64,000 nt of DNA, taken from positions 42,227 through 106,226 of the IMG/VR virus record IMGVR_UViG_3300044630_005137; one strand, 5' to 3'. Position 1 is the stretch's first letter. Each line of letters starts with the position of its first letter. The position numbers and the translations under genes are program-made. Below, piece after piece: positions 23,001 to 60,228 of the stretch. The stretch is from a virus. The notes below the pieces were generated by a model. The model was not told the origin of the DNA. It saw nothing but the letters and a program-made list of their open reading frames with translations, and ran no database searches.

Positions 23001-25729
23001 AATGATTCAATGTCTCCACCAGTATTAAACTTAGGCATTCTTGTTGTCTGCATGCTATACGGAGCACCAAACGTTCTGATTCCACGCAGTCTACCAAACT
23101 CGGTCATTACAGCTGCGTTATTTTTTTTCTTATAAAGATCTCTTAATGTAAATTGACCATTTGCATCAACAACTGGTTGATCCATCATTGGGGCTCTTGT
23201 TAAATCAAGGCTTCTTCCACGTCCTGCAGCGTACATACTTACAGCAGCGCCCATGTCTGCTTCTATCTGTGCATTTAAAGCAATAATTCTTGCCTTTGCT
23301 TGATCAACTGTTATTTCTGCACTTCTCATTTGCTGAACTATTAATCCAGACTGTGTAGCTGCACTATCTGCAAATCTTTGAGTTATAGGAAGAATGTCAT
23401 CAAATGTGTCAAGGAGTTCTCTACTGACTGTTCCGCCCATCATAATTGTTTTCTTTAATGCTGCAATTTCTTGCTCTGTTTGCATTCCAAGTGTTGCCAT
23501 TAATGCATGGAACTTGGCTGCTTCTCCTGGAACAATTCCTGTAGATATTCCCTTTACGCTTGTTAGACCTTCAATGTTAGGTAGTCTATCATGCATATAC
23601 ATTTGAGGAGTTCTTGATATTCCTCTATTTACTGGTATTGCTCCTGGTACCCCGCCAAATATTGTTGCTGGCTTATTTGGGTCTCTAGGATTAATATGAG
23701 ACATTGCTCTTGTGTTAGGATCTCCTACATAAGGATCGTTAGGGTCAACAACTCTTCTTCCATGAGCAGGAGCAACAATTGTATTTCCAGCAACAGTAGA
23801 GACTCCTGCGTTTACTGGAACTGCACCCTTCATTGATGCTGCTTGAAGATTTTGATAATCTAAAACAAGTTTTTGAAGTGCATTGTGAAGAACTTGAGCC
23901 GCAGCTGCATCAGAATAAAATGCATTCTCGACTAGCTCTGCTGCTTTTTGTGCGGCAATAATTTCTGGAGTAAGCATCTTCCAGCCATTTGCTTTCATAA
24001 AGAATGCTCTTAGCTGGACAACACCCTTAGTTATATATCCAAAGAAGTTTGCGAGTAAACCAGTTAACATAATAAGTGGTCCAACTAATGCTGTAAATCC
24101 AGCAAGGAAGGTCAATCCTTTTTTAATTGGGTCTGGCAATTTAGTAAAGAAATCTAAGATTTTTGTTGCTGCGCTTATAAGCTTAGTTGCAACTCCAAGA
24201 AATTCCTGTCCTACATCTGCAAGCTCTGCTTTTAGTCCTTCTATGGCTCTCTTGTATTTACCAGATGCAGACTCTGTAACCATTTTTAATTCTCGGCTTG
24301 CTATATCTGCTAAATCTCCAGTACTTGCTTTCATCAATTCTAAAACTTGAAGCGTCTGGCTACCCTGTTTACCTAGATTATTAAGCAATGCGCTCATTCT
24401 TGCAAACTGGAACTTTCCAAACATTTGCTCCATTGCTCTTGCTTTACTTAGTGGGTCAAGGGAGTCTAAAGCTTTTTGCAGATCCATCAATAAACCAGTA
24501 GTGTCTCCAGTATTTTTTGCAACCATGCCCATAACATCTATGCCAAAATCTGACATCATCCCTACGGTTTGTTTTGTTGGGTTAATAAGAGATGCTAAAC
24601 CAGACTTCAAAGCGTTGGCACCTTCTGAAGCGCTAACACCACCTTCACGCATTGCAGTTAGATATAGGGCTAAGTCTTTAACATCTCCACCTAGCTGCTG
24701 AATCACTGGACCAGCTTTTGGAATTGCTTCTACTAGGTCATTAAGAGTTGTTGATGTCTGGTTTTCAACTGCGTTTAGAAAGTTAATAGATTCTGTTAGC
24801 TCTTGAGTATTTTGCTTAAAAGCTGTTTGAATTGATAATGTTGCTTTCATTGCATCTTGTCTATCAACTTCACCCAGAATAGCAAGTCTTGTTGTTTCTG
24901 CAATTGATCCTAGAAGTTCGTTTCCAGTTTGTCCTGTTGCTGCAATATCAGCACCTAATGCAATAGTATCCTTAAATGATGCACCCATTGTTTTAGATAA
25001 TGTTTTTGCAGTCTCAACAACTTCTTCTCTAATTGCTTTTAAATCTGAAGCAGATGTAGCTGCAAGACCACCGTAAACTTTTGTTAATCTTACAAGCTCT
25101 TGGTCTGCTTCTTTAAATGCTTTACCAGCTGCTGCTCCAAACATTGTGATTGGCACAGTAAGTCCTACAGTAAGCTGTCTACCAGCCCACTGAGTATTCT
25201 TACCCCAGTTAATTAAAGATCCTGCTCCCTCAGACAATGCACGATTCATAATCTGCATTTCCATTCGAGCTAGTTTTCCACTATTTGCTACAGCATCTAA
25301 TCCTCTAGGAATCATTACGTTATACTGCATTAACCCCTGAGCATTTCTACCTAGTGGTTGCAGTACTGAATTTTGAAGCATTACCTGTTCTTTGGCAAGC
25401 TCCCTGATCATACCCTTTTGAGTAGTAGTATGCTCTCTAAATGTAGAAAAATAATTTTTAAGCTTTAATCTACCAGCATCTAAGTTCTTACCGAACTTGT
25501 CTACATCAGAATTAAGGTTTACAAAGTGACTGGAGAACTGTCCGCTTCCAGTTAATGTATCTCTAAATAAATTGTTTGCTAATTTTGTTGAAGAAGAAAT
25601 TGCTTTGTTTGATGCAAGAAGCTCTCTTTGTAATTGTTGGAGACTAGAACTAGCCCTGTGTACTTCAGACACAAGGCTAGACAAGTCGGCTTTGGCGACT
25701 ATACTGGTTACAATTTGTTCGTCAGCCAC
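14057..25729 (-). CDS. Tape measure protein, 3890 aa, with embedded CHAP-like peptidase, LysM and further putative enzymatic modules
   Basis: Follows the tail chaperone. N-terminal TP901-type TMP core, hydrophobic segments, GPGTATSDSIPAMLSHGEYV motif, AWCGTFV...H...GN (CHAP) and HVVEKDQTLSQIA...LNP (LysM). Confidence 0.92.
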   Translation of the reverse strand: MADEQIVTSIVAKADLSSLVSEVHRASSSLQQLQRELLASNKAISSSTKLANNLFRDTLTGSGQFSSHFVNLNSDVDKFGKNLDAGRLKLKNYFSTFREHTTTQKGMIRELAKEQVMLQNSVLQPLGRNAQGLMQYNVMIPRGLDAVANSGKLARMEMQIMNRALSEGAGSLINWGKNTQWAGRQLTVGLTVPITMFGAAAGKAFKEADQELVRLTKVYGGLAATSASDLKAIREEVVETAKTLSKTMGASFKDTIALGADIAATGQTGNELLGSIAETTRLAILGEVDRQDAMKATLSIQTAFKQNTQELTESINFLNAVENQTSTTLNDLVEAIPKAGPVIQQLGGDVKDLALYLTAMREGGVSASEGANALKSGLASLINPTKQTVGMMSDFGIDVMGMVAKNTGDTTGLLMDLQKALDSLDPLSKARAMEQMFGKFQFARMSALLNNLGKQGSQTLQVLELMKASTGDLADIASRELKMVTESASGKYKRAIEGLKAELADVGQEFLGVATKLISAATKILDFFTKLPDPIKKGLTFLAGFTALVGPLIMLTGLLANFFGYITKGVVQLRAFFMKANGWKMLTPEIIAAQKAAELVENAFYSDAAAAQVLHNALQKLVLDYQNLQAASMKGAVPVNAGVSTVAGNTIVAPAHGRRVVDPNDPYVGDPNTRAMSHINPRDPNKPATIFGGVPGAIPVNRGISRTPQMYMHDRLPNIEGLTSVKGISTGIVPGEAAKFHALMATLGMQTEQEIAALKKTIMMGGTVSRELLDTFDDILPITQRFADSAATQSGLIVQQMRSAEITVDQAKARIIALNAQIEADMGAAVSMYAAGRGRSLDLTRAPMMDQPVVDANGQFTLRDLYKKKNNAAVMTEFGRLRGIRTFGAPYSMQTTRMPKFNTGGDIESFGPGKTMVSGPSSINYDDRLGSVPVGGYVLNQSASMDPANAPLVAMASATYENGGEITAALTPREVVFGPKIQRMPELYAAVDAANSGYNFGGQIMNGVTGYGKKTGKTPQVENKAYYKRRLREYLRFINNPRYADDIRVRMIMLDAAELAGKAKMPIDKAINIATSNFDKAIGKSGGSIEKFIDIRIKQVQGLEGAKDANGNLKFPGLKLNDPTNTRSTGGSTALNYELNNVRSAMLKNRKFKDVFDLIEGVTPTDLKNSKGMPYIEGLHARGHITRHGNVGYATSGHMGVAAVIPNGINSIMARLQDIGISPDILHLSGEDARKNFQIALKSVGMHKMTTVDDIATALEENNLFKTKEQIASGSVVRATPKQRNDLQMFLEAVMERKRWMLIPRGRPPIMTPVLAKLNMGGMIPGGSVSPGRFSYGVVPPLSARLESIRLAQQAQYAKKREADMIKYPWIKEAVAGRDRGTSISPLLKLLPPGKQLDILEQSREMSRATATGSFKDLPPVKYGHMVSPSSGMSYPIPGVSGLYRDSEGRLKFFKGVPNEISAKAEVYGTRMAREVFGLDAPEQTIKTISNPLDPSGKSKLLGVESPFDKRFTTGGTVFTEDEMIRQTIASLVMNNKDLSPSNVYGNVLADVGAAGVFPKASRNTAHAESLPSMIDQAMINLLGVKGGARKDFAVNTAPIAAGMTSKQYNRKIKAAMKKMHPKLIKFVATLPREDRAPYIKLLQRFENGMDDATDFGPLHAVHVAAKRNSGGPIGGGPVRSGRYAYGAKNKKGSQRSGNPAKRAEDDRLRAARTASYNPPSGSGYTSSGNPQMQVIRVPYVGGSGVAGNAFGSVATGQSQQIIDTLKLSQIGQLPAGVTRAFDSLTKSIKVGTVGLRYGIATSATHINSAYRDFAKSQVASARLNASFLSNWVKTNTRDIKDGILRHQARSYSAAYPGANYLMGPGQIMPISMSGPGMVGDWKETGQDGTKSRKVGTLGYRKREYMDADGYIHDKKSAQAAGLDTKIRGGMGMGAQMGIGMAGNMGGMYMMQQEKVNMLGMEMSGMNAGLGIMAASTIIPMVPWLTVGNKIKTTTSATMAAIKAAKGFKDAISKLGAQLGKYIKILKGVGVVISVLLIGFDVWKKYNNAQQDAAMSLGITKDGAEQAGISYFNLNNYLTEYIEKQKLANAAAQGGRSSSIGMPGIPQSVEDMKKAKEEGAALKDLIESINRTSSTGELQTLINNQKAQFIAGGLSVEQANRMIYGAIANSEKATKSYELLANSGFGAITDKATAAEFAVKNLLETLKPEPKTGWSKGSFEYNLAKQPMWFTKQWKEENNLFERGVDLTFIGLIDRYANAFADTNAYKKGVISGLESVISTFDSSTKALIGTKNATGEVIDEYEAYQISLANLEKDVPNFNAAIGEETFKVIQDMSPELAKITNKFDSIKSILAKIKLSTSGIGLDLKYLDGELAIKLAGFTAAVGEGIDGLTKAAGDGSTYGSVGKILNKLQKSIAATSAASQKAAAATQKNIQEELKLIAKKISLIEDEKNKKLESLRATQDASNYALELQKLQIEYADAISRGDQAGAARARIEIDQLTSNRQFDLTQKAIEDEAARLKAIEQKKIDAKQAKADAAAQKFEGAQDGAASATKIADLIKGFKDTYDEITTLRITNNLLPDSKAKRDSEVQLLGRLDNLLKQIGVAGTGNSQTAKDIRSAFAEYFNKDGTVKKVYVESKPAGLPDAGTAGIVPRVSVNKDTLSIFDRDVAAVTKFADQITGGKGYSIKKMTEEIVAAIRGGGTYKDPINAGTAKDAVGKKYIDWNTPLFNDRSAVKYFAAKKGYKPGQQFTLEEANGVKKQFLVLNDGSIQYQRDISPTYASGGKVRGPGTATSDSIPAMLSHGEYVIKASSVAKYGVKAMDDINAGRFANGGQVQKFSTGGQALLKEIGKDPTLKDVKSPLGTAKRFIDTAISQLGTEEEVMGKTYGAEGNNITKYSRWLNSIKDLGAKAFAWCGTFVQWAAHMSGVKIPDTFYTADGAKSFAGLGQLVDVATTIPTKIDDRSASDDVGESPRASDFNVGVNYDTGKYYGNPKDIERYEKAADEYYKKYHAYQAKREKSKQDKAKAGWARILKNPPKPGDIMYLNWAQQSSDSDTNRIRHAAIATEVKREKSYSGVEQFSISTVDGNIRDRVSQSGYYLTKESVGDNALVAYARPNFMPSPLTAIEDAISAAVNQRTTHVVEKDQTLSQIAKSLNIDSKVLAELNPDYLLGNTVYKGSRINIPKKFAGGGMVQAFGEGGGPGIPSWPKKRKKFKSPGMGIDKYTPPLIGSGASAWSGGLLGGGGGFTVGMHDGGYVHPHPHDALTNTLIQAPRKGTTAYAKYAYEMARNYGGAAKTAAKLTKPIKVSDGPAYSWLGSDGTIGYSRHDKYKYVDAGMGSASEVASQILNDLSKTAMRAKIIEMNAKRFHKGGPVGHKHKYGEPTSKKQNWLQRYVSGLTESQDEAQAILSRSPLTSWMASDPLGAVAALRKATGQSREGDNLSASLLPFNFMGFGLGARVGMGATGVANSARLANATTGAGGPAVSSMKSSKASKTIIRNLQKKAMEYAEARGASIPEMVLSGDRALTDAPTTFFSPPGTDLSRAYNYYWGEAWEILNKNGDPAIKDVSKEYFMTMLGLMGKGQISRAETAETVTTEFSKAANKAYAAAHGLDPNQPLAMYKATEAHSKLGGYWSLSSKMAAHYASDAHLNLTGDKAGNWMGGSNAGLYKIDVLPEQVPTPLSIGGMYDEFTSTLPPELVELLGGGQRIAVGGKKFTVRGDKRGTPGPQRANTADEFYSVVRGAALPQGIYPHDLSRLMKTDLHSRNLPFMDAINNTFKKLLEFGSIRPKFANGGMVNSLSNLGVPMFENGINMVPANMLAMLHKNEAVIPANMNPFNPNASAAVSGSVYNISVELNGTNVTAQDVATQIHKEMRLKEMAAGVNRRVGNG

Positions 25730-36786: not shown

Positions 36787-37332
36787 TTAAACCCAATGAC
36801 CTATTGCAATGTATCTAGAATTACCATAAGCTGGATCTGCAGATACCTGCATTTCTGATGGGGCTATAATTATGCTGCCCGCTTCAGGCTTAAACTTAGG
36901 CTTTCCAGGTATTAAAATCTCTCCATTTGAAAAAGAATCATTAATGTACATTCTGGCCGTATACTTTCCATTTGCCCCGCAGTTGTTCTTTACTTGGCCC
37001 TCATCATGCTTTCTTACAAAGTACTTCGTGCTTAAGTTAACCTGCTCTTCTATGTTATTAAACAGCCTATATTGACTAAAGCAATGATGAAATGTGGCTT
37101 TTAGATTATTAATTATAAAAAGACTACGAGTATCTACGGTTTCTGTTTCATTTGAGAAATCAGAAGATATTCTTTTTTCATAACCATATTCTGTATCGTG
37201 CCACTTACTAATTAAGTTGGTTGTATTGTTTTCGCTTTCTTCAAGGAAGCTTATATAATTCCCAATCTCTTGAAGACAATATGTAAAATAAAATGTCTTT
37301 GGTGCAATTTCTTGAAAAACGTACATTGCCAT
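36787..37332 (-). CDS. Degenerate 2OG-Fe(II) oxygenase-like protein (iron ligands apparently lost)
   Basis: Keeps YINDSFSNGEI..P...KPEAGSII but lacks the HxD and distal His at the aligned positions. Confidence 0.65.
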   Translation of the reverse strand: MAMYVFQEIAPKTFYFTYCLQEIGNYISFLEESENNTTNLISKWHDTEYGYEKRISSDFSNETETVDTRSLFIINNLKATFHHCFSQYRLFNNIEEQVNLSTKYFVRKHDEGQVKNNCGANGKYTARMYINDSFSNGEILIPGKPKFKPEAGSIIIAPSEMQVSADPAYGNSRYIAIGHWV

Positions 37333-37344
37333 AATTAACTCTTT

Positions 37345-38061
37345 CTAGTTTGGAATAAAAACGCCATCTACGAATTTACCAGTGTTAAGCCAAAACGAAG
37401 GAACCATATATTTAGATCCGCCTTTTATAAGGTGTGCTGTATGACTATATGGATCTGTTGAAGGAAAGATTATTACGCTTCCAGCCTTCGGCTTAACGTG
37501 AAACATAATTCTATCATGATTAAGTGGGCTATCAAAATCTTCTGCAGCGGCATCATCTGTAGAAGTCAATACTCCATCTTTTACATTAAAAGATATTTCT
37601 CCGCCTTCGTAATCATCATTTAAATACATTACCATAGAATACCTAAGTCTTCTATCCCCCTCTTGCTGATCAAAGTGGGATCCCATAAAAGTTCCAGGCA
37701 TGTATTTTTTAATTGCTGTATCTGTCATTAAAATTATCTCAGCATCATCACCGATTTTTGAAGCATAATCTTCACAGACATTTTTCATACCATCAAATAT
37801 CTCATTGAAAATATAGTTGCAATCATCTATAACATCTTCGGATATATTTTTTTCTATATCTTCAGAAGACAAACACTTTATTCTTTTGTGTGATCCATAA
37901 ATGTACATTTGTCCACTACATGCACCCCACTCTTCCCAGGGGGTGATGAAGCTTGAGTATTTATCAGATTCTGTTGATTCGATTAAATCAACAAGCTTTT
38001 TAGGCTCCTTTATAACATCAGTGTAGTAATACACCTTATCAAATAATTCTTCGCTTTTCAT
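37345..38061 (-). CDS. 2OG-Fe(II) oxygenase, prolyl-4-hydroxylase-like
   Basis: HFD...YLNDDYEGGE...KPKAGSVIIFPS...HTAH....GSKY. Confidence 0.9.
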   Translation of the reverse strand: MKSEELFDKVYYYTDVIKEPKKLVDLIESTESDKYSSFITPWEEWGACSGQMYIYGSHKRIKCLSSEDIEKNISEDVIDDCNYIFNEIFDGMKNVCEDYASKIGDDAEIILMTDTAIKKYMPGTFMGSHFDQQEGDRRLRYSMVMYLNDDYEGGEISFNVKDGVLTSTDDAAAEDFDSPLNHDRIMFHVKPKAGSVIIFPSTDPYSHTAHLIKGGSKYMVPSFWLNTGKFVDGVFIPN

Positions 38062-38106
38062 ACTTCCTCCTACTTATAACTTTTGTAATAATTGTACCAG
38101 ATATTG

Positions 38107-38916
38107 TTACTTAAATAAATCTTCTTTATCTGGGTAAACAAACTCTGGCTCCCAATTGGGATCTTGCTTAAACAAAACATCTTCTCCAGTTGGATCTATC
38201 CAAAACATCGGAAGCATGTATTTCCATCCTGATTTTACTTCATGCGCTGTATGACTAAATGGTGAGGGTGATGGGAATATAACTATGCTACCAGCTTCTG
38301 GTTTAATATAGAAGTCGTACAATCCCTCATTAGCAGGATGCATAAGGTCACCCTGCAAAGAAAGTTCTGTGGCAGTCAAAACTCCTTCTTTTATAGAAAA
38401 AGAAAGCTCTCCGCCTTCATAGTCATCATTTGGCCAAACTACTAAAGAATAAAGAAGCCTTGTGTCACCTTCTTGAGAGTCGTGATGAACTCCCATATAG
38501 TTGCCAGCCCTATATCTATGAACACCAAACTGTTCTAATAGGGTAAGTTCTTTATCTATGCCTTGTTCTTTTTTATAATCTTCACATACATATCTTATGG
38601 CATTAAATAATGGGTCTCTTATTTTAATAAACATTTCTTTTGTTTCTTCAGAAACGTCTTTATCTATGTTATATACATTATTTAATAAACATAATTTTTT
38701 ATATCCATAAACATATGGGTGCCCCATAGATCTGTTTTCGTCTACATCCCACTGATTCCACGGTGTTAATACAGGGTATATATCAGGATTATTTTCAGAA
38801 TCATTTACAAGATCTAGCCATTCTTTTACATTAGGAATAGCATTTCTATAATAATAAACTTGCGGGTGAAGCTCTTCTCTAATCATTCCGTTTTCTAATA
38901 CAGTCGTTTTTATCAT
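38107..38916 (-). CDS. 2OG-Fe(II) oxygenase, prolyl-4-hydroxylase-like
   Basis: HHD...NDDYEGGEL...HTAHEVKSGWKY. Close paralogue of 37345..38061. Confidence 0.9.
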   Translation of the reverse strand: MIKTTVLENGMIREELHPQVYYYRNAIPNVKEWLDLVNDSENNPDIYPVLTPWNQWDVDENRSMGHPYVYGYKKLCLLNNVYNIDKDVSEETKEMFIKIRDPLFNAIRYVCEDYKKEQGIDKELTLLEQFGVHRYRAGNYMGVHHDSQEGDTRLLYSLVVWPNDDYEGGELSFSIKEGVLTATELSLQGDLMHPANEGLYDFYIKPEAGSIVIFPSPSPFSHTAHEVKSGWKYMLPMFWIDPTGEDVLFKQDPNWEPEFVYPDKEDLFK

Positions 38917-39665
38917 TCTATCTCCAATGCTACTTCTTTTTTAGCAGTTTGATCTGGTCCAGGCTTTAGTCTTTCACCTCTTGCTTTAAGTTCTGCCCAA
39001 AGCTCTGCGTCCTCTGCCTGTCTTTTTCTTTGATCTGCTATATCGGTTTCCCACATAGCCTGCTTTTCTTCGCTATAAACAGCCTCTTCATTATCCCAAA
39101 ATGATCCTATAGTTATTCTTGTTCCTTTAGTAATCATTTGTACTTCATGTATATTGTGATGACCTCCAGCAAATGCTGCTAGCATTCCAGTTTTTGGCTG
39201 CAAAGAAATATCATGATCTCTAAAGTTTAAAACGCCACCTTCAAAATCATCATTTAAATAAAGAAATGCTGCCCACTTGCTTCTTTCAAAAGAATTATAC
39301 TCTGGTGAGTCTATTGGTGTATTGTCTGAATGATAACCAGCGTATGCTCCCTCTACCCATTTTTGTGCATGATAGCTAACTAGTCTAACTTTATCACCTC
39401 TACATATCTCTGTAGCTTCCTGTATTTTATCTTGAAGTGTAATAAAAAAATCAGGCGATAAACCAAACTTTTCTTTATCTTCATCGTCTGGCAAGTTAGA
39501 TGCAAATGAGTCATAAAATGATATTGGTGCCCACGGAAGAGTTCCTTTTTCTACAGAATGTTCCCAGTATTTAATAACTTTTTCGCAATCTTCTGGACTA
39601 AGAAAGTTTTCAAAAAACACTATGTCTTCTTTAATTCTATTTTGATTTTCTAAATTAAATGTCAT
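38913..39665 (-). CDS. 2OG-Fe(II) oxygenase
   Basis: HSD...YLNDDFEGG...HEV....GTR. Confidence 0.9.
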   Translation of the reverse strand: MTFNLENQNRIKEDIVFFENFLSPEDCEKVIKYWEHSVEKGTLPWAPISFYDSFASNLPDDEDKEKFGLSPDFFITLQDKIQEATEICRGDKVRLVSYHAQKWVEGAYAGYHSDNTPIDSPEYNSFERSKWAAFLYLNDDFEGGVLNFRDHDISLQPKTGMLAAFAGGHHNIHEVQMITKGTRITIGSFWDNEEAVYSEEKQAMWETDIADQRKRQAEDAELWAELKARGERLKPGPDQTAKKEVALEIE

Positions 39666-40509
39666 TTAAATTAATCCTTTCTAGCTTTTTAAGTTCATCA
39701 TAGTTTATTGTTTGATAAGCTCCAGACTTTCTTTCTTCTTTAGTTCTGGCAATTTCCATTTCTTTCCATATCTCTTTACCATAAAGCTTTTCGTTTTCTA
39801 GCCATTCTTTCGAGCCAGGATAAAATCTTACCCAATGATTTCTTACAAAATATTTAGGTGTGCCCTTTACCTTTTCAACTCCATGCATATAGAATTGACC
39901 AGCATCAGAAAGGAAATCTGGGTCTCCTGCTGGGAACAAAAGTACATCACCCTTTTCTGGCTTGTAATAGAATGTTTTGTTGTCTACCAAGAATGTCAGG
40001 CCACCGCCTTCGTAATCTCCATTTAAATACATTGTACATGTAAATGTAAACTTGTATCCTCTAAAGTCATGATAATCTCTCTGATAGTCTGTGTGTACAT
40101 GCATAGCGAGATCGGACTCTTCTATACCGCCTTCAACTTCATACTTGCATATAGAAGGACCCATTCTTTTCCATAGTTGAGTTAGAGATCCTTCTTCTTC
40201 ATTAAAAACTTCAGCATCACGATCAATTGGTACACCAAATGTTTCTGCATACTGATTTGTTGTTTTATCAAATACTTCAATTAGCTCTTCCCAGCAAAGT
40301 CTTTCTAGTGATGTTCTTTCAGAAGATTCAACAGAGTTGTCAAACTGATCCGCCTCTTTGCCAAAAGTATACCAACCATGCCAATTTAAAGCAGATCCTT
40401 CTGGGTTCTTTTCAGAATCCATAATTGTTTTTGTTAACAAATCAATATCTTTCCAGGGATTTTTGAATACCCATATTTTTGGGTATATCTCTCTATATTT
40501 AAGTGTCAT
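39655..40509 (-). CDS. 2OG-Fe(II) oxygenase
   Basis: HTD...YLNGDYEGG...HGV....PKY. Confidence 0.9.
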   Translation of the reverse strand: MTLKYREIYPKIWVFKNPWKDIDLLTKTIMDSEKNPEGSALNWHGWYTFGKEADQFDNSVESSERTSLERLCWEELIEVFDKTTNQYAETFGVPIDRDAEVFNEEEGSLTQLWKRMGPSICKYEVEGGIEESDLAMHVHTDYQRDYHDFRGYKFTFTCTMYLNGDYEGGGLTFLVDNKTFYYKPEKGDVLLFPAGDPDFLSDAGQFYMHGVEKVKGTPKYFVRNHWVRFYPGSKEWLENEKLYGKEIWKEMEIARTKEERKSGAYQTINYDELKKLERINLNDI

Positions 40510-41195
40510 GGCTTTATATCACCAGTATGCTCAAGTATCTGCCAAAAGAATGGTGACGTATATCTTCCTCCAGAAATAATTGGTCTAACTCCGTGAATAT
40601 AACCTTTATCACCTGGGAAAAAGTATGCTGATCCGCCAACGGGTTTAAATTCTATTCCTTGAACAGGGAAAAACAATTCTCCTCCTTCGTAATCATCGTT
40701 AAAATAAAATAATGAAGCGATATCGTAATGAGGAAAATCATTAGGTGTACCTGCGTCTGGGCCTTCATGCAGCTCTTTGTCTGCATGAGGATCTTGTCTT
40801 GATCCTACAGGCCATCTAACAATTGCTGGTCCTGTAGCCTGAACCTTTACATTAAAAAACTTTTCTACCTCTACTTGCAGTCTTGATATAAGATTATCAA
40901 CAACATATACAATATCTGGATCTGCGGAAATTTCCATAGATTTACGTGTGCAAACTCTATCGAACCATGCGTTTGCATCATAGATTACTGTACCATTTTC
41001 ATTTACGTGAGAATCAGTAATATCCCATGTTTTATTGGTTTTTGCAAAGTTGGTGAGTCTTGTTCTTTCTTGGTCTGTTAAAAAGTTTTTTAGCTCTACA
41101 ATATTTTCTGGACCTGTGCCAAAAAAGCCAGATGGTGTTATGGACCCTAGAGATCTGTAGTCATGAGTGTTATTAGTATTTAATCTTTGTTCCAT
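40506..41195 (-). CDS. 2OG-Fe(II) oxygenase (probable start MEQRL)
   Basis: HAD...YFNDDYEGGEL...HGVRPIISGGRY. Confidence 0.9.
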   Translation of the reverse strand: MEQRLNTNNTHDYRSLGSITPSGFFGTGPENIVELKNFLTDQERTRLTNFAKTNKTWDITDSHVNENGTVIYDANAWFDRVCTRKSMEISADPDIVYVVDNLISRLQVEVEKFFNVKVQATGPAIVRWPVGSRQDPHADKELHEGPDAGTPNDFPHYDIASLFYFNDDYEGGELFFPVQGIEFKPVGGSAYFFPGDKGYIHGVRPIISGGRYTSPFFWQILEHTGDIKP

Positions 41196-41196
41196 A

Positions 41197-41916
41197 TTAT
41201 TTATACTTCCTTCTTGTCCAAAATCTTTTTTTATAGACTCCACCTTCTGGTGTTCTAAAAATTTCTGATGTTTCCATTGCTTTTTGCATAATATCAATTG
41301 GCTTATGAAATATCAACTCTGATTCCCAGTCTTCCCTTTTAAATGGTATTATCTGCAAATATGGTGTTCCTGCAGGTACAATCCCAGCAAATCCATTTTT
41401 TATAAAAAATGGTATTAATCCAGATGTTGTAACCTTATCACTGTCTATTATACCACCGACTGTAAGCCAAGGTAAGTCAAAATGATTTATCGGCTGTATG
41501 TATAAGGAGCTATATCCTTCTGGAAGCTGTGGAGCCCAATTGGCATACCAATGAAAATGATTTTTTTCATAACCAGGAGGAACTTGAAATCCAGTAGACT
41601 CTGGTCTTTCTCCTACAAAATCATCAAATTTTAAAGGCACCTTTGCTTTTATCCTATTGTTTTTTTCATAAAATTCTATGTCGCATGGGGTTACAAGTGT
41701 ATATCCAGATGTAAATGTATCTAGCATGGCTGGACATGCTTTAAAGTTTAGCATTTTGCCGCCGTCTTTATTTGCATTAGAAACTGGATTCCCATAAAAA
41801 TCTTTTATATATATGTCAGCATCTTGCCACCACTTAGGAATAACTCTTGCAGCTGGGCATGGAGCGGTTTCGACATCATTGTAATGCTTGTTTGAATGAA
41901 ATATTATTTTGTTCAT
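41197..41916 (-). CDS. Beta-rich hypothetical protein of the oxygenase cluster
   Basis: K.CP...D....GY and GTPYLQIIPFKRE motifs. Resembles the neighbouring 41913..42647 protein. Confidence 0.65.
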   Translation of the reverse strand: MNKIIFHSNKHYNDVETAPCPAARVIPKWWQDADIYIKDFYGNPVSNANKDGGKMLNFKACPAMLDTFTSGYTLVTPCDIEFYEKNNRIKAKVPLKFDDFVGERPESTGFQVPPGYEKNHFHWYANWAPQLPEGYSSLYIQPINHFDLPWLTVGGIIDSDKVTTSGLIPFFIKNGFAGIVPAGTPYLQIIPFKREDWESELIFHKPIDIMQKAMETSEIFRTPEGGVYKKRFWTRRKYK

Positions 41917-42647
41917 TGGGGTATTCCACAGCCTTCTGGTCCAGTTAAAGAAGTTTCATCATTTTTTAATCGTAACGATTTTACTTCATGAGATCCTATT
42001 TTATTGTTTTTATGGTCTACAGCATTTCTGTAAAAATCAGTCCACTTTCCAGATTTATTAATATCGCTAACAATTTTGCCATAGTCTTCTTTTGGAAAAA
42101 AATCTATTGGTAAATCCTTATATCCTTTTATTGTTGCTACTGAATTGTTTAAATTAGATAAAGATATTGGGATAATTGATGCAACTGGAGTATTTGCTGG
42201 AATAGTAATAACTTCATTGGCCTTTGTTATTCTCCATGCAATTGGAAAAGTGCCTTTAAAAAACGAAGTGCTTATTAGTGTTGTAAAAGGCCAAACACCA
42301 TCTATTGGCCAGTTTGGTGTTGGCATTGCTAGCATGCTTACATTTTCTTCAGTTTTTATAACTAAATTTGTATTAAAGCTAATTGTTGCATTGGCTCTTG
42401 ATGTTGAAACGTAATCCTTACCTTTTAAAACTTTAACGTGAGTGTCTGTTGAATCTGATATGCCGTCCCAAATAAATTCAATATCTACTGGAAAAGAAAC
42501 TCCCCATCCCAAGGTATTTGAAAGGCTTACTGGAAAACAATGATAGGCATGCTTATCAGATGTTTCATCCATCCATTCTCTTTTTACTCCTAGAGGCTGA
42601 ATATCTGCTGATTGATTTGGATAAACTTTGTATACATCAAAGTTCAT
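41913..42647 (-). CDS. DUF6065-like protein
   Basis: KREWMD.T...HAY.C.P....N..GW pattern, recognised from memory. Confidence 0.6.
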   Translation of the reverse strand: MNFDVYKVYPNQSADIQPLGVKREWMDETSDKHAYHCFPVSLSNTLGWGVSFPVDIEFIWDGISDSTDTHVKVLKGKDYVSTSRANATISFNTNLVIKTEENVSMLAMPTPNWPIDGVWPFTTLISTSFFKGTFPIAWRITKANEVITIPANTPVASIIPISLSNLNNSVATIKGYKDLPIDFFPKEDYGKIVSDINKSGKWTDFYRNAVDHKNNKIGSHEVKSLRLKNDETSLTGPEGCGIPQ

Positions 42648-43288
42648 CAGTACCCATCTTTCATTGATTTATCAGACATAAACTGTCTATAAAAAGACTC
42701 TGTATGAGTTGCATCGTTATAATCTGTCATAGTAACAATTGAATATTTTAGTCCAGATTTTACTGGAAGGGCGGCATGAGAGAACAAATATGTAGATGGG
42801 AATATATACAGATCTCCAGCCTTTGGCTTAATAGTTAAATCCAGTTTATCAAATCTTAATCCGCCTTCTTCATAATCATCATTAATATAAGCAACCATTG
42901 ATACTGTTGATATATATGACCAACCATGATCTGAATGATAAGAGAAATGTTGACCTTCTCCATATTTAATAAAATTCATTGCTTCCCAATATTTTAATTC
43001 AATATTGTAAAAAGAAGAATAATCATTTAATGCAATTGCCTGTGCATCATAAACATCTTGCCAAATTGCATCTACTTCTTGATTGTATTTATCAGGAATA
43101 TGGTTTTCAAATTTTTTCCATTTAAAGTCTACACAGTCTCTATAGTCAGGCATTTTTTCTCTATATCCGACGGTTGCTTCTTTCCAAGTATGCATTCCTT
43201 TAGAATCAAGTATTGCACTTTCAAGCCTGTTGATTATATCCATTTCTGGAGTAATTACATTTCTATAAACCCAAAGTCCTGGGAACAA
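42647..43288 (-). CDS. 2OG-Fe(II) oxygenase, prolyl-4-hydroxylase-like (start uncertain, TTG)
   Basis: HSD...YINDDYEEGGL...HAALPVKSGLKY. Confidence 0.88.
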   Translation of the reverse strand: MFPGLWVYRNVITPEMDIINRLESAILDSKGMHTWKEATVGYREKMPDYRDCVDFKWKKFENHIPDKYNQEVDAIWQDVYDAQAIALNDYSSFYNIELKYWEAMNFIKYGEGQHFSYHSDHGWSYISTVSMVAYINDDYEEGGLRFDKLDLTIKPKAGDLYIFPSTYLFSHAALPVKSGLKYSIVTMTDYNDATHTESFYRQFMSDKSMKDGY

Positions 43289-43295
43289 CTCTTCT

Positions 43296-43538
43296 TTATT
43301 GTAAATTTTCTTTTCCCCATTTTCCTACAGGACATTCAGCTTCGGCAAGTTGAACTTTGATTGGCATAATACAATTACATTTTGAACATTGTGTAGTTTT
43401 TAAATAAAATTCGCAGCCTTTACAAATACTTAATCTATTTTCAGCAATCTTATTGTCTGAAACATGCCTATTGGGATCAAATATGTGCCATGGGCGTGTG
43501 TCACCTACGGCTTTTTTCCATTCTTCCCATTTAGACAT
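43296..43538 (-). CDS. Small Cys-rich protein (DUF6171-like, probable start MSKWEE)
   Basis: RL.IC..C......QC..C.C.M..K......CP.GKW. Confidence 0.7.
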   Translation of the reverse strand: MSKWEEWKKAVGDTRPWHIFDPNRHVSDNKIAENRLSICKGCEFYLKTTQCSKCNCIMPIKVQLAEAECPVGKWGKENLQ

Positions 43539-44026
43539 TATGCTGTGTAGGTAAAGTTTGTGCCGTCCCAAATGTAACCAACTGTTACGCTTGCGTCTTG
43601 ATCTATTTTTTTCAATGTTACATTTCCAGAAAATGCAGCTTCAAACTTTTCATCAAGTATGCTGCCTTTGATTGGAGCCATCATAAAAAATACTTTATTG
43701 TTGCATAACAAAGTATATCCAGAAAGAATTGATGTTCCATCTATAGAAGAATATCTTACCCCAGACTCCCCTTCAGTTCCTATAAATTCTTCTGGAATAG
43801 GATTTGGCAATGTAAAATTTAATCCATCCCATGTACTACCAATTAATAATCCAGGCTTTTCATTTGCTGCTTGGCCAACAATAGTGTAACCAGAGTTTAG
43901 GGCTTCATCAATCCTGCTAACTCTTTCTAAAGATTCTGGCGTTTCGTCTGAAACTCTAATAACATGAAAAACTTCATAGTTGTTATTATCAATTTCAACT
44001 AACATAGCGTATTTATGTACAGTCAT
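43538..44026 (-). CDS. Hypothetical fibre-associated protein with two WDG.NF repeats
   Basis: GSTWDGLNF and GYIWDGTNF. AAGGAG RBS. Confidence 0.65.
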   Translation of the reverse strand: MTVHKYAMLVEIDNNNYEVFHVIRVSDETPESLERVSRIDEALNSGYTIVGQAANEKPGLLIGSTWDGLNFTLPNPIPEEFIGTEGESGVRYSSIDGTSILSGYTLLCNNKVFFMMAPIKGSILDEKFEAAFSGNVTLKKIDQDASVTVGYIWDGTNFTYTA

Positions 44027-44095
44027 TTAATCTCCTTAATTATTATATAGTACATTTTACTATATATTTAATATTATTGTCAATAGCGGTACTAT

Positions 44096-45169
44096 TTAGA
44101 ACTCGCATTGACATCCTCCAGTATAGAATCCAGACCATCCTGATCCGTATACTGCGGCACAGTTTCCACCGCAACCTCCGCCAACAAAGTGTGGTGGGAA
44201 GAATGGTGGGAAGAATGGTGGGAAGTGTGGTGGGAAGAACGGTGGGAAGTGTGGTGGGAAGAACGGTGGGAAGAACGGTGGGAAGAATGGTGGGAAGAAC
44301 GGTGGGAAATGTGGAGGGAAGAACGGTGGGAAGTGTGGTGGGAAGAACGGTGGGAAGAACGGTGGGAAGAACGGTGGGAAGAACGGTGGGAAGTGTGGTG
44401 GGAAGAACGGTGGGAAGTGTGGTGGGAAGAACGGTGGGAAGAATGGTGGGAAGTGTGGTGGGAAGAACGGTGGGAAGTGTGGTGGGAAGAACGGTGGGAA
44501 GAACGGTGGGAAGTGTGGTGGGAAGAACGGTGGGAAGAACGGTGGGAAGTGTGGAGGTGTAAATGTTTCTACAGTTCCAGTTGTTGTACCTAAAGATTGT
44601 CCATTTGCATTTGATGCGTAAACAGTATAAGTTTCAGAGTTTGGAGATGCTGTATCAAATGGAGATGTTGCTGCTGAGGATAAAGATCCCCGAATACTAG
44701 AAGTAATTTGAAAAGTAGTTATTGCGCTTCCACCAGTAGCATTTGCAGAAAAAGTAATTCTGTCATTTCCAGAAGCTGGGACTGGGCTTGGCCCAGGGGT
44801 ACTTGTTGAAACAGTTGCACTTGGAGCTTGTGGAACTGTGGTGGCAGTTATTGATCCAGATGTTGTTGCTTGAGATGAGCCAGCAGCGTTAGAGGCAACA
44901 ACTGTAAATGTATATGCCGTTGCACTTAATAATCCTGTAAAGGTATAACTAGTACTAGAAGTAGTTTGTGTTGTTGTTGCTGGGGTTGATGTAATGGTAT
45001 AAAGTGTTGCTGGGGGTGATGCGGCTGGCAAAGACCATGTAAGAGATGCTGCGCCATTATTATATGCCCGCCCAGTACCCACATTTGTTGCAGTTAAGGA
45101 AGTAACTGCACTTGGTTCTAAGAAATTATCCTGTGCTGAGGATTTTCTACCTATTTTCTTATTTGCCAT
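44096..45169 (-). CDS. FN3 virion protein with a (PPFF/PPHF)31 tract and a Cys/Gly-rich C-terminal tip
   Basis: 357 aa. FN3 motif FTGL...[14 protein letters not shown]. Ends [29 protein letters not shown]. Confidence 0.8.
44186..44557 (-). repeat. 31 x 12-bp tandem repeat encoding PPFF/PPHF
   Basis: Same 12-mers as at 1551-1754, with a few synonymous variants. Confidence 0.95.
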
Positions 45170-45197: not shown

Positions 45198-47780
45198 TTA
45201 TGCTGTCAAGTCTCCAGCTAGCAACCAAGTATTTATCGCTACCTTGGTAAGTGTTGCTGATGAATGTGTTGTTCTTAGTGTTAATCCTGGTGTGCGAAGA
45301 ATTGTAACTGTACCATCTGCTGCTACAAAGTTTGCGCCAGTTCCTGATGCTTGGTAAAAATCAATTGATGTACCAATTGGGAAGGCTGTTGTTGCATTTG
45401 TTGGTATTGTAATTGCTCGTGCACCTGCAATTGGGATAAGCTGATCTCTTAGAGCAAGGCCACCTGTTGATAGGTTATATGCTGCTGAGATTTCAGTTCC
45501 AATTGTTGTAAGTGATGGGACACCAGCTTTTGTTTGAGTTCCATCTGTAAATGCTACTCCTGCTGCGGCAACTGTCACTGTACCAGTAAATGTTGGTGAG
45601 GCAAGTGGTGCTTTTAGGCCAAGACTTGTTGTTACAGATGTAGCAAAGTTTGCGTCATCTCCAAGTGCTGCAGCAAGTTCATCAAGTGTGTTAAGTGCTG
45701 CTGGAGCAGATGCAATTACTGCATTTACTTGTGCTGTTGCATCTGCAATTGCTTCTGCCTTAGCAGTTGCAATTGCTGAAGCCTGTGCTGTAGATACTGG
45801 TTTTGCTGTATCAGCTGTATTGTCAACAGATCCAAGCCCAACCATAGTTTTTGTAATTCCTGATACTGTACCAGTAAATGTTGGTGAGGCAATTGGGGCT
45901 TTTGCAGCAAGATCGGATGTGAGGCCTGAAATCTTAGACTGGGCAATTCCTGCTGAAGCGTTAATATCTCCATCTACGATTGTTCCGTTTGCAATCTTAG
46001 CTGAAGTTACTGCGCCATCTGCAATCTTTGATTCAGTAACTGAATCAACTGCAAGTTCTGAGCTAGTTACCGATGCTGCAATAATTTCTGCAGTTCCAAC
46101 TGAATCATCTGACATCATTGATTGAGTAATTGTATTTGCAGGAAGTGTTACTGTTCCTGTAAATGTTGGGGAAGCAAGTGGTGCTTTGGTATCAATTTGA
46201 GTCTGAATAGATGATGTTACTCCATCAAGGTAACCAATTTCAACATCTGAAACGTTGGCAACAACTGGCTGCTTAGTATTTAATTGAGTTTGAATTGCTG
46301 ATGTTACTCCATCAAGGTAGCCAATTTCAACATCTGAAACGTTAGCTACAACTGCCTGCTTGGCATCTAGTTGTATTTGAAGACCAGAAGTTACTCCGTT
46401 TAGGTAACCTATTTCTAGGTTGCTAACATCACCGATTGAGGTTGATCCTGGAAGTGTTACATTTCCAGTAAATGTTGGTGCTGCAAGTGGTGCGTAAGTT
46501 GAAGCAGCTGTTGCTGATGCTAACTTAGCATCAATTTGCCCCTGAATACCAGAGGTTACTCCGTTAACATATGCCAACTCAACGTTGCTGACATCACCGA
46601 TTGAGGTTGTTGCTGGAAGAGTTACTGTGCCAGTTAGTGTCGGTGAAGCAAGTGGTGCGTAAGTTGAAGCAGCAATTGTAGTTTCCAGCTTTGCATCAAT
46701 TTGTCCCTGAATACCAGATGTTACTCCGTTTAGATACCCTATTTCTAGGTTGCTAACATCACCGATTGAAGTTGATCCTGGAAGTGTTACTGTGCCAGTT
46801 AGTGTCGGTGAAGCAAGTGGTGCTTTAGCATCTAGCTGTACTTGAACACCAGAAGTTACTCCGTTTATGTATCCTAACTCAACGTTGCTGACATCACCGA
46901 TTGAGGTTGTTGCTGGAAGAGTTACGTTTCCAGTGAATGTTGGTGATGCTAATGGAGCCTTTAAGCTAAGAGCAGTTGTAACAGTTCCTGCAAAATTTGC
47001 GTCATCATTAAGAGCTGCTGCTAATTCGTTTAATGTATTAAGCGATTCTGGTGAAGCAGATGTAAGTATACTTACAGCTGCATCCGCATAAGCTTCAGCT
47101 TGAGTTTTTGCTGTTGCGATTGCTGTAGCAGTTGCGGTTGAAACAGGCTTATTTAAATCAGTTGTATTGTCAACATTTGCAAGGCCCACATCTGACTTAG
47201 TAATTCCAGTAGGGGTATTTATTACTGGAGATGTAAGAGTCTTATTTGTAAGAGTTTGTGATCCTGTTGTAGTTGCAAGGATGCTTGTATCCGCAATACC
47301 GTGAACAGATGTTGTATCTGCTTCATGTGTTGCAATTGCGGCTGAGATGGCTTCTGTTGCTGAAATAACTTTCCAGTTACCATCAGTGCTTGCAGGTGAT
47401 GCAGACAAAACATATGTTGTTCCAGTATCTGACTGAATTGCAATGTCTCCAGATTCTGCTGTTAATGCTAATCTTGCTGCCTGGTTTGCAACAGCACTAA
47501 CTGTTACTTTGGCAAGTGGGGGAAGTTGTGCTGAAGGGATAAATCCTGATGAATCCAGTGAAGCAACACCATTTGCAACACCTTTTGTACTTAAAAGAAT
47601 ATAATCGTCTACTGTTTGTGAGAGAGCATAACTTAGTGAGTTCCAAGCAGTGCTTCCATCTCCAAATTTAAATGTATTAGTATCTGTTTCAATACCAATT
47701 TCTCCAGCTGCTAGGGTTGGATTTGCTGCGACCCATTGAGCTTCTGTGCCTCTTCTTAACTGCAATCTTACTGTTGCCAT
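45198..47780 (-). CDS. Fibre protein with Mtd-N/hyaluronidase-like N-terminal domain and internal repeats
   Basis: QLRRGT...W...NP.LA.GEIG.ETDT..FK.GDG...W..L.Y. Repeated APLASPT.TG.VTLP..TSIGDVSN.E.GY.NGVTS units. Confidence 0.8.
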   Translation of the reverse strand: MATVRLQLRRGTEAQWVAANPTLAAGEIGIETDTNTFKFGDGSTAWNSLSYALSQTVDDYILLSTKGVANGVASLDSSGFIPSAQLPPLAKVTVSAVANQAARLALTAESGDIAIQSDTGTTYVLSASPASTDGNWKVISATEAISAAIATHEADTTSVHGIADTSILATTTGSQTLTNKTLTSPVINTPTGITKSDVGLANVDNTTDLNKPVSTATATAIATAKTQAEAYADAAVSILTSASPESLNTLNELAAALNDDANFAGTVTTALSLKAPLASPTFTGNVTLPATTSIGDVSNVELGYINGVTSGVQVQLDAKAPLASPTLTGTVTLPGSTSIGDVSNLEIGYLNGVTSGIQGQIDAKLETTIAASTYAPLASPTLTGTVTLPATTSIGDVSNVELAYVNGVTSGIQGQIDAKLASATAASTYAPLAAPTFTGNVTLPGSTSIGDVSNLEIGYLNGVTSGLQIQLDAKQAVVANVSDVEIGYLDGVTSAIQTQLNTKQPVVANVSDVEIGYLDGVTSSIQTQIDTKAPLASPTFTGTVTLPANTITQSMMSDDSVGTAEIIAASVTSSELAVDSVTESKIADGAVTSAKIANGTIVDGDINASAGIAQSKISGLTSDLAAKAPIASPTFTGTVSGITKTMVGLGSVDNTADTAKPVSTAQASAIATAKAEAIADATAQVNAVIASAPAALNTLDELAAALGDDANFATSVTTSLGLKAPLASPTFTGTVTVAAAGVAFTDGTQTKAGVPSLTTIGTEISAAYNLSTGGLALRDQLIPIAGARAITIPTNATTAFPIGTSIDFYQASGTGANFVAADGTVTILRTPGLTLRTTHSSATLTKVAINTWLLAGDLTA

Positions 47781-57265: not shown

Positions 57266-57305
57266 ATAAACCCCAATCGGATCCGCCTCTGATTGGGGTT
57301 TTTAT
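57266..57305. terminator. Bidirectional terminator between convergent operons
   Basis: AAACCCCAATCGGA-N6-TCTGATTGGGGTTT followed by a T tract. Confidence 0.8.
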
Positions 57306-60088: not shown

Positions 60089-60228
60089 GCTCTTATTATA
60101 CACCGCCCTATATTCTAGTCAACTGCTTTTTAAGATCTATAAAAATGTTAATATATTTTTTACATGTATGATACACAATTTGGGCAAAACGGACATTTCG
60201 GATAGTGCGCCCATGTTTTAGGGTGTTT

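Follow-up and report, generated by a model that had tools for sequence, protein, structure and literature searches.

The 64,000-nt stretch of DNA analysed here (the window) makes up the right-hand end of a 106-kb IMG/VR record (IMGVR_UViG_3300044630_005137; estimated completeness 91%) from a freshwater siphovirus-like actinophage that encodes WhiB and belongs to a very abundant lineage. On its minus strand, between the tail-fibre genes and the portal gene, lies a cassette in which a fibronectin type III (FN3) protein with 31 tandem PP[F/H]F units is followed by a 162-residue 'WDG' protein, a small Cys-rich protein resembling DUF6171, two DUF6065 proteins and seven genes related to 2-oxoglutarate (2OG)-Fe(II) oxygenases of the prolyl 4-hydroxylase (P4H) type, designated ox1 to ox7. 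This arrangement had been described in an earlier, sequence-only reading of the window, and it was recovered in full, with six of the seven oxygenases intact and one degenerate, as were three additional oxygenase genes at 57.3–60.1 kb (Table 1). Across related phages the repeat arrays and the oxygenases occur together. From this pattern and from the predicted fold of ox1 we propose, with a little more confidence than doubt, that the cassette is dedicated to the hydroxylation of aromatic-Pro linkers in virion proteins.

The open reading frames (ORFs) of the cassette are tightly packed, many of them abutting or overlapping by a few bases, and are read from the same strand as the structural genes. 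Downstream of ox7 follow a Laminin_G_3 protein and then the portal. The listed TTG start of ox2 at 41297 makes this gene overlap DUF6065b by 100 nt, and its true start is probably the ATG at 41195. Two further oxygenases of this genome lie outside the window. A scan of 34.5–48.4 kb for promoters and terminators gave counts that were not above those in shuffled sequences; a TTGACA-18-TAAAAT site between the FN3 gene and the gene for the 162-residue protein is a good match, but was not counted as evidence. Contigs from RNA libraries (four lake metatranscriptomes, 90–99% identity) cover ox4 to ox6, the FN3 gene and the fibre gene, with ox5 covered at 99%. Since RNA libraries can contain DNA, such cover is not proof of transcription, and stretches lacking it are uninformative.

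Table 1. Genes and repeat arrays of the oxygenase cassette and related features in the window
Feature	Position	Strand	Evidence or remark
Fibre, 860 residues, Mtd_N head and 55-residue repeats	45198-47780	-	Pfam Mtd_N, E 5.7e-16; many tail-fibre PHROGs
FN3 protein, 357 residues	44096-45169	-	Pfam fn3, E 3.5e-9; proposed substrate
31-unit array (DNA)	44186-44557		unit 12 nt; TRF periods 12/24/36
162-residue ('WDG') protein, two W-D/N-G motifs	43538-44026	-	phrog_14370
DUF6171-like Cys-rich small protein	43296-43571	-	PF19668, 26.5 bits, just below cut-off of 27; phrog_13558, E 3.6e-14
ox1, core P4H-like, HSD...H...K	42647-43288	-	PF13640, 47.5 bits
DUF6065a	41913-42647	-	PF19541, 116 bits, E 2.4e-33, above cut-off
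DUF6065b	41197-41916	-	phrog_7084, E 8e-31 (also matched by DUF6065a); no Pfam match
ox2, core P4H-like, HAD...H...R	40506-41297	-	PF13640, 28.4 bits
ox3, P4H-like, HTD...H...K	39655-40509	-	PF13640, motif columns
ox4, core P4H-like, HSD...H...R	38913-39665	-	PF13640, motif columns
ox5, P4H-like, HHD...H...K, specific to this clade	38107-38916	-	PF13640, motif columns
ox6, P4H-like, HFD...H...K	37345-38061	-	PF13640, motif columns
ox7, degenerate paralog	36787-37332	-	lineage HMM only, E 1e-18
Distal oxygenase, HQD...H...R	57302-57874	-	PF13640, 29.4 bits
Distal oxygenase, HTD...H...K	57864-58616	-	PF13640, 21.6 bits, below cut-off; lineage HMM, E 4e-42
Distal oxygenase, HAD...H...R	59369-60103	-	PF13640, 23.7 bits, below cut-off; lineage HMM, E 7e-28
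Multi-FN3 virion protein, 1489 residues	1248-5717	-	unit census; proposed second substrate
17-unit array	1551-1754		in the 1489-residue protein

The 357-residue FN3 protein consists of N-terminal FN3 domains, the 31-unit array, and a tail of 29 residues, rich in Gly, Cys and aromatic residues, that contains four Cys. A second array, of 17 PP[F/H]F units, forms the linker preceding the last FN3 domain of the 1489-residue virion protein, 42 kb from the cassette. The two arrays share two 12-nt DNA units, CCACCGTTCTTC and CCACCACACTTC, which suggests that sequence has been exchanged between them or that they arose from a common source very recently. Homologs of the FN3 protein with arrays of the FF-P type are present in 79 loci. 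Their units vary (including PP[F/H/Y]F and xFFxPP) around one constant feature, namely an aromatic pair, nearly always Phe-Phe, that is flanked by Pro. Ser-Pro(3-5) or SPPPP motifs were not found in the arrays of the window or of its relatives, and in the absence of Ser-Pro4 motifs the label 'extensin-like', given to the stalk in the sequence-only reading, had to be abandoned. The window's arrays have no Gly at every third residue, and the phage arrays, lacking Gly-X-Y triplets, are therefore not collagen; one relative with GFFSPP units gave a sub-threshold match to Collagen. A link between His-containing units and the clade-specific ox5 and ox7 was also considered and rejected, as it is confounded by clade and as one locus (L144) has His units without either gene.

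Seven of the ten oxygenase genes in the window (the six intact ones of the cassette and the one at 57302) match PF13640 above its cut-off of 27 bits, and alignment to a hidden Markov model (HMM) built for the lineage shows the HxD...H triad intact in nine of the ten. The 2OG position is occupied by Lys in the genes starting at 37345, 38107, 39655, 42647 and 57864, and by Arg in those at 38913, 40506, 57302 and 59369. The counts given in the sequence-only reading (nine triads and one degenerate copy, five Lys and four Arg) thus agree exactly with the motif columns. Orthologs of ox1 are present in all oxygenase-bearing relatives, with H118, D120, H171 and K181 invariant. Compared with the PDB, the ox1 sequence profile gave weak matches throughout, the best to Bacillus anthracis P4H (E 1e-4), followed by PiuC-type hydroxylases and the lysyl hydroxylase LH3. 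In the fold comparison ox1 represented the oxygenases: its AlphaFold model (pLDDT 85) matched double-stranded beta-helix folds with E-values of 5e-11 to 1e-9 and TM-scores of 0.55–0.71, including those of the HIF prolyl hydroxylase PHD2, vCPH of chlorovirus PBCV-1, Pseudomonas PPHD, the PHDs of Dictyostelium (PhyA) and Trichoplax, and Chlamydomonas P4H-1. Nearly all top-ranked matches are protein prolyl hydroxylases, the sole other being an uncharacterised PKHD-type oxygenase (3dkq). Orthologs of ox2 are 55–66% identical in distant relatives, and the core enzymes in general are 40–65% identical between orthologous positions. The degenerate ox7 lacks the HxD motif and the distal His in all 13 distinct orthologs (41–92% identity) while its ORF is intact and the 2OG-binding Arg of SRY is kept, making it a candidate pseudoenzyme, possibly a substrate-binding subunit.

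Related loci were collected through the FN3 protein (79 loci) and through the portal (80, out of some 600 homologs of it in IMG/VR). They share a conserved gene order of fibre, FN3-array, [162-residue protein, DUF6171], ox1, DUF6065a/b, ox2, (ox3), ox4, ox6-like, Laminin_G, portal, with the Mtd_N fibre gene always preceding the FN3-array gene. This order holds down to about 45% identity in the FN3 part and 40–65% in the core enzymes, and the paralogs are therefore old position-specific orthologs, not recent duplicates. Of the portal-anchored loci that extend 9 kb or more upstream, 17 bear oxygenases, and an array was found in 15 of these (the remaining two being truncated by the flank); none of the 15 loci without oxygenases shows one (Fisher 2e-7). 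The FN3 proteins of oxygenase-free loci end in a Gly_rich_2 domain and have no array; eleven such ORFs were found in eight loci, all oxygenase-free. No locus was seen in which the battery lies beside an array-less FN3 protein, the apparent exception (L010) being due to an alternative frame of the repeat. One locus (L099) appears intermediate, with one-Pro (FGFTP)n units and two oxygenases kept.

The same holds at the level of whole records. Six of the 16 carry 7–12 oxygenases, including dispersed copies, together with one to three array genes, and the other ten (25–78 kb) carry neither (Fisher 1.2e-4, uncorrected for phylogeny). In the portal tree the oxygenase state changes nine times, at least seven of these on well-supported branches, and the array changes with it in 4/4 independent pairs on supported branches (6/6 on all branches). 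The number of FF units correlates with the number of oxygenases (Spearman 0.55, p 0.005, n=25), an exploratory result that includes truncated ORFs and is uncorrected for phylogeny. Co-occurrence across the loci and the 16 whole records is thus perfect, which was the test proposed with the sequence-only reading, and no relative was found that keeps the oxygenase cluster without an aromatic-Pro array.

As adjacency alone could yield such a pattern, the unlinked genes matter most as evidence. The record G006 contains a second array, equivalent to the 17-unit one, about 35 kb from its battery. In the oxygenase-free G001, a homolog of the 1489-residue protein has 57% identity over the 67 residues before the array site and then continues with a short Ser/Pro/Ala/Thr/Gly linker. 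The dispersed oxygenases are likewise missing from array-free genomes. A search for related loci with the conserved segment of the 1489-residue protein found none, so that the test on unlinked arrays rests on few whole records. It is here that a different explanation has to be weighed, in which the enzymes are protein hydroxylases with other targets (host translation or regulatory proteins, or other phage proteins) and the link with the arrays merely reflects inheritance of one fibre-plus-oxygenase cassette and lineage structure. PHD and PPHD enzymes acting on EF-Tu, and OGFOD1 acting on ribosomal protein S23, are precedents for such targets, and the fold matches of ox1 include Pseudomonas PPHD bound to EF-Tu as well as HIF- and Skp1-type hydroxylases. 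Physical linkage is a real confounder, most arrays adjoining the battery, and the dispersed paralogs at 57–60 kb lie among early or small genes. We nevertheless consider this explanation unlikely: there are at least seven state changes on the portal tree and no discordant genome was found, the unlinked arrays and the array-free G001 ortholog obey the same rule, and array-less FN3 paralogs never occur with the battery. A role in host takeover would, moreover, not be expected to vanish upon each change of the fibre linker.

The two DUF6065 proteins appear to belong to the dUTPase superfamily. The model of DUF6065a (pLDDT 73) has a dUTPase-like fold, with VIA Z-scores of 8.4–10.8 to twelve dUTPases and a root-mean-square deviation of about 3 Å over 109–129 residues; in Foldseek the top matches were also all dUTPases, at marginal E-values of about 1e-3. 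It lacks an invariant Asp at the catalytic position of motif III. DUF6065b is a paralog that keeps GxxDxD and GTPxxQxxP as alignment invariants, and motif V was not seen in it. Given these incomplete motifs and the lack of any match to the PF00692 dUTPase in the genome, neither protein is classed as a dUTPase. Among the 16 whole records, DUF6065a is confined to those with oxygenases, and DUF6065b-like genes are found in oxygenase-free ones too. More distant relatives of DUF6065b (23–25% identity) in haloarchaeal tailed viruses adjoin genes for thymidylate synthase, DNA polymerase and a nucleotide kinase, and may encode a divergent enzyme of the dUTPase/dCTP-deaminase type; one of them, gp40 of Haloarcula virus HCTV-6 (L160:6899-7762), lies beside a thymidylate synthase and a family B DNA polymerase. 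At least 1502 proteins of Alphaproteobacteria are fusions of DUF6065 with a Cupin_8/JmjC 2OG oxygenase, 120/120 of those listed carrying both domains, and such fusions connect DUF6065 with 2OG oxygenases on evidence that does not come from the phage. The fused forms were not found with the phage alignment as query, owing to a word-index limitation, and came to light through a genome locus instead. In one such locus, from a Rhizorhapis metagenome-assembled genome (MAG; L196:7992-9683), the DUF6065-JmjC fusion has a divergent CMAS-type methyltransferase gene as its neighbour.

The dUTPase fold also raises the possibility that the battery and the DUF6065 proteins act on a nucleotide, a nucleotide-sugar or another small molecule (base or sugar hydroxylation, metabolite synthesis) and not on protein. 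The fold assignment of DUF6065a (Z 10–11), the Asp and Gln motifs kept in DUF6065b, the nucleotide-metabolism neighbours of the halovirus homologs and the lack of PF00692 in the genome all fit this idea, as does the position of DUF6065b in oxygenase-free phages next to a glycosyltransferase, an enzyme that uses nucleotide-sugars. Yet DUF6065a is without the catalytic Asp, DUF6065b also occurs in genomes that have no oxygenase at all, and may therefore simply be an independent gene, and the top fold matches of ox1 include no AlkB, TET/JBP, TauD or nucleoside hydroxylases. The cassette moreover lies in the virion module and not with replication genes, and it co-varies with a feature of a protein. 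Action on small molecules consequently seems improbable to us.

Few 'auxiliary' genes of aquatic viromes are as abundant as the oxygenases of the P4H type, of which cyanophages carry several copies, and their role has been called cryptic for more than 15 years (PMC3037559, PMC9301287); a survey of freshwater phages leaves them unmentioned (PMC6802176). The genes of the window could accordingly be generic auxiliary metabolic genes (AMGs) of the kind proposed for T4-like cyanophages, serving 2-oxoglutarate drawdown, succinate supply or DNA repair without a dedicated substrate. Several such genes of unassigned role are present in 14/16 cyanomyovirus genomes (PMC3037559), the viral 'AMGs' of highest abundance in Baltic waters include P4HA, whose use is called cryptic (PMC9301287), and ox1 has weak tblastn matches to oxygenases of cyanophages and a Methylophilales phage. 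The cyanophage enzymes resemble those of the window in belonging to the same Pfam family and in occurring as several copies per genome, but their identity is only about 27–30%, and in the window's lineage the genes form an ordered, conserved operon that lies within the virion module and includes DUF6065 partners, and a candidate substrate co-varies with them. Specialised roles are indicated by the position-specific orthologs and by the conservation of a dead paralog, close relatives from the same habitat lack all copies, and the genes are strictly tied to the type of linker in virion proteins. A generic metabolic function is thus very improbable.

We therefore return to hydroxylation of the virion linkers, which the sequence-only reading had already set against a generic metabolic role; that part of it stands, backed by the co-occurrence and by the closeness of the ox1 fold to protein prolyl hydroxylases, and its extensin-like and glycosylatable stalk does not. 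The cassette would be a late-expressed maturation unit of six intact P4H-type hydroxylases, a conserved dead paralog and two DUF6065 proteins with a dUTPase fold, with help from dispersed paralogs, of which there are no fewer than three and probably five. The gene layout, the assignments of family and fold, the intact metal and 2OG sites, the synteny and the co-occurrence across genomes have been shown; what we infer beyond them is the substrate, the residue modified and the physical consequence. In the infected cell, the enzymes would hydroxylate the (aromatic-aromatic-Pro-Pro)n linkers of the 357- and 1489-residue FN3 proteins. Pro is the most likely target residue in view of the fold family, the position-specific paralogs might split the work by site or stereochemistry, and some might act on Phe or His. 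The product could be a stiffer and less hydrophobic stalk of the polyproline type that presents a variable tip.

Several points weigh against this proposal. The case rests entirely on comparative genomics and fold. Since most arrays adjoin the battery, exchange of whole cassettes explains part of the co-occurrence; clearly unlinked arrays are found in two genomes only, the oxygenase-free records are fragments (20–72% complete), and a sign test restricted to supported branches does not reach significance (p 0.125). A set of 7–12 paralogs is large for a unit of four residues. Bacterial PHD-type enzymes can target host proteins such as EF-Tu, and 4iw3 is among the ox1 fold matches. The dUTPase-fold partners suggest a nucleotide ligand, in keeping with the nucleotide-metabolism genes around the halovirus relatives of DUF6065b and with a genome that has no canonical dUTPase, and hydroxylation of linkers leaves the role of DUF6065 unexplained. 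Finally, no hydroxyproline was detected in the virions of PBCV-1, the one viral precedent (PMC7019647).

The variable tip lies downstream of the array. In homologs of the FN3-array protein it is either a short Cys-rich tail, as the 29-residue one in the window, or a domain of about 170 residues. The latter is of the Hint/bacterial intein-like (BIL) type, as alignment A4 compared with the PDB gave 2lwy (E 2.3e-9) followed by more than 12 inteins. Position 1 is Cys or Ser, the domain often ends in HN(K), and several members combine Cys1 with HNK at the terminus. The Hint domain directly follows the array in about a fifth of the related phages (examples are L120:6995-7477, L122:9679-10188, L143:3386-3907 and L105:4532-5008). 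The FN3-array proteins of these phages thereby share a C-terminal Hint domain with Hedgehog-type, BIL and other Hint autoprocessing proteins, whereas the window's own protein ends in its Cys-rich tail instead. The Hint tails suggest autocatalytic cleavage, or transfer of the stalk C-terminus, in place of a Cys-rich tip.

The distribution of the tips separates the small genes of the cassette from the oxygenases. DUF6171 is present with 33/48 Cys tails and with 3/36 other tails (Fisher 1e-8), and the 162-residue protein with 23/48 and 0/36, respectively, whereas oxygenases are present whatever the tip (44/48 Cys tails, 17/19 Hint tails). DUF6171 and the 162-residue protein thus track the Cys tail and the oxygenases track the array, so that the gene list of the sequence-only reading, which gave the WDG and Cys-rich proteins together with the oxygenases, mixes two functional units; both proteins follow the Cys-rich tip and not the repeats or the oxygenases. 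They probably constitute a separate sub-module that serves this tip, and are candidates for folding, disulfide or metal chaperones. The 162-residue protein in particular is a candidate assembly factor for the tip; in Protein Atlas all its scores were below 0.9, with a weak lead to tail-fibre assembly proteins.

A parallel cassette is found in the oxygenase-free G001 (L164:9037-12148) and G005 (L176:13001-16459). Directly after the Mtd_N fibre, both encode a protein with a PASTA domain, a Tyr-rich array, (PQYYAA)n or (APYH)n, and a Cys-rich tail, with a PF11397 glycosyltransferase and DUF6065b-like gene(s) downstream; in G001 a protein like the 162-residue one and DUF6171 lie between the array gene and these. 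Repetitive stalks in this lineage thus tend to come with modifying enzymes. The characterised member known for PF11397 is the Skp1 hydroxyproline GlcNAc-transferase. A pathway of hydroxylation followed by GlcNAc addition was considered for the window's phage, whose genome has a PF11397 gene, and was rejected, for this gene does not travel with the oxygenases: all five other oxygenase-bearing records lack PF11397, which leaves the pathway unsupported, and two oxygenase-free records have it. The stalk can for the same reason no longer be called 'glycosylatable', as the sequence-only reading had it. In the window's genome the PF11397 gene adjoins a homolog of flavin-dependent Trp halogenases (PF04820, E 2e-103) and a short-chain dehydrogenase/reductase gene (L199:2132-5535, equivalent to G000:C1:22132-25535).

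With considerable reserve, and doubting that all its parts will hold, we also consider a wider scheme, a modular 'stalk-and-tip adhesin maturation' in freshwater actinophages, with dedicated modifying enzymes of the phage suited to the chemistry of each repetitive stalk. Stalks of Phe, Pro and His would go with 5–12 specialised P4H-like hydroxylases, Tyr-rich stalks with the Skp1-type glycosyltransferase homolog, DUF6065 would be a new class of nucleotide-dependent transferase or adaptor acting after hydroxylation, and the tips would be Cys knots or Hint domains. The hydroxyls (3-Hyp, 4-Hyp, beta-hydroxy Phe or His) might create a heavily hydroxylated rod comparable to mussel-foot protein or extensin, and Tyr stalks, already hydroxyl-bearing, might be paired with the glycosyltransferase homolog instead. 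The presence of DUF6065 in both types of cassette, and its fusion to JmjC in bacteria, might reflect a coupling like that of hydroxylase and glycosyltransferase in LH3. Through such tips, whether Cys-rich knots or Hint domains, host recognition or covalent attachment would become more diverse.

Among the closest known systems is the P4H of PBCV-1 (A085R, or vCPH), linked in vitro, on peptides, to the virus's own Pro-rich repeats of the (PAPK)n type (Eriksson et al. 1999, as cited in PMC7019647). Both viruses encode an enzyme of the P4H type and also, as candidate substrates, Pro-rich repeats, and vCPH (5c5t) ranks second among the fold matches of ox1. PBCV-1 differs in having a single enzyme, a eukaryotic host, basic PAPK repeats and no DUF6065, compared with 7–12 diverged paralogs plus a dead one, and aromatic repeats, in the window's lineage; its link was established by hydroxylation of peptides in vitro, while that in the phages is known from co-occurrence alone. 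Another comparison is with the P4H of B. anthracis (3itq/5hv0) and the collagen-like exosporium protein BclA, and with animal collagen P4H. The B. anthracis enzyme shares with five of the window's paralogs the Lys at the 2OG residue, and its substrate is a repetitive surface filament protein, but the phage arrays are without Gly-X-Y and the sequence similarity is marginal. Plant and algal P4Hs acting on extensins and other hydroxyproline-rich glycoproteins modify polyproline II repeats that become rigid rods, and Cr-P4H-1 (2jig/3gze) is among the fold matches (ranks 24 and 28); the phage arrays, unlike these substrates, have no Ser-Pro4 and no co-occurring Hyp glycosyltransferase, and the phage reaction would be cytoplasmic and not secretory. 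In LH3/PLOD3 and mimivirus L230, a hydroxylase is coupled to a module with a nucleotide-binding fold, as in the DUF6065-JmjC fusions and in the adjacency of oxygenases and DUF6065 in the phages. Their partner is a glycosyltransferase, however, and DUF6065 has a dUTPase fold and no known transferase activity, so that the comparison is an analogy only.

The portal, protease-capsid and tail genes of the window's phage are similar to those of large Streptomyces siphoviruses, as judged from PHROGs and tblastn (protease identity 45%). Its genome encodes WhiB, and the host is therefore most likely an actinobacterium; the genome GC content is 37%. Short fibre matches to cyanomyoviruses had suggested a hypervariable island of a T4-like cyanophage, which was overturned by the portal, protease and capsid PHROGs, by tblastn and by WhiB. 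Related contigs carry MAG labels (Bacteroidia, Verrucomicrobia, Acidimicrobiia and others) that are mutually inconsistent and were not used for host inference. Near-identical DNA recurs among lake-water metagenomes (at least 19 runs, 2020–2024). Among 50,697 phage records, neither megablast with the cluster nor tblastn with the FN3 protein and DUF6065a gave a match. A 3890-residue ORF upstream of the tail genes (14057-25729 of the window) presumably encodes a giant protein of the tape-measure type, and elsewhere the genome has genes for a GT2 glycosyltransferase, an NTP transferase, a subtilase, a glutathione-peroxidase-like protein and a PT-repeat protein.

Viral P4H together with Pro-rich repeats in the same genome (PBCV-1) and bacterial P4H together with collagen-like proteins (B. 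anthracis) were already known. New are the ordered battery of 7–12 paralogs, accompanied by a pseudoenzyme that is conserved, the partnership with DUF6065, the aromatic type of polyproline linker, and comparative evidence that ties P4H-type enzymes to phage virion proteins. A literature search on DUF6065 and on phage hydroxyproline in tail fibres returned nothing relevant, and no paper describing such a system was found. If our proposal is true, the system would represent the first case in which enzymes encoded by a phage hydroxylate phage virion proteins; DUF6065, a family with at least 1500 bacterial JmjC fusions, would acquire a partner function, and protein engineering would gain an aromatic polyproline linker of a new type. 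For the many unexplained 'P4H' genes of phages, the lineage offers a phage-encoded candidate substrate together with natural variants in which substrate and enzymes are present or absent.

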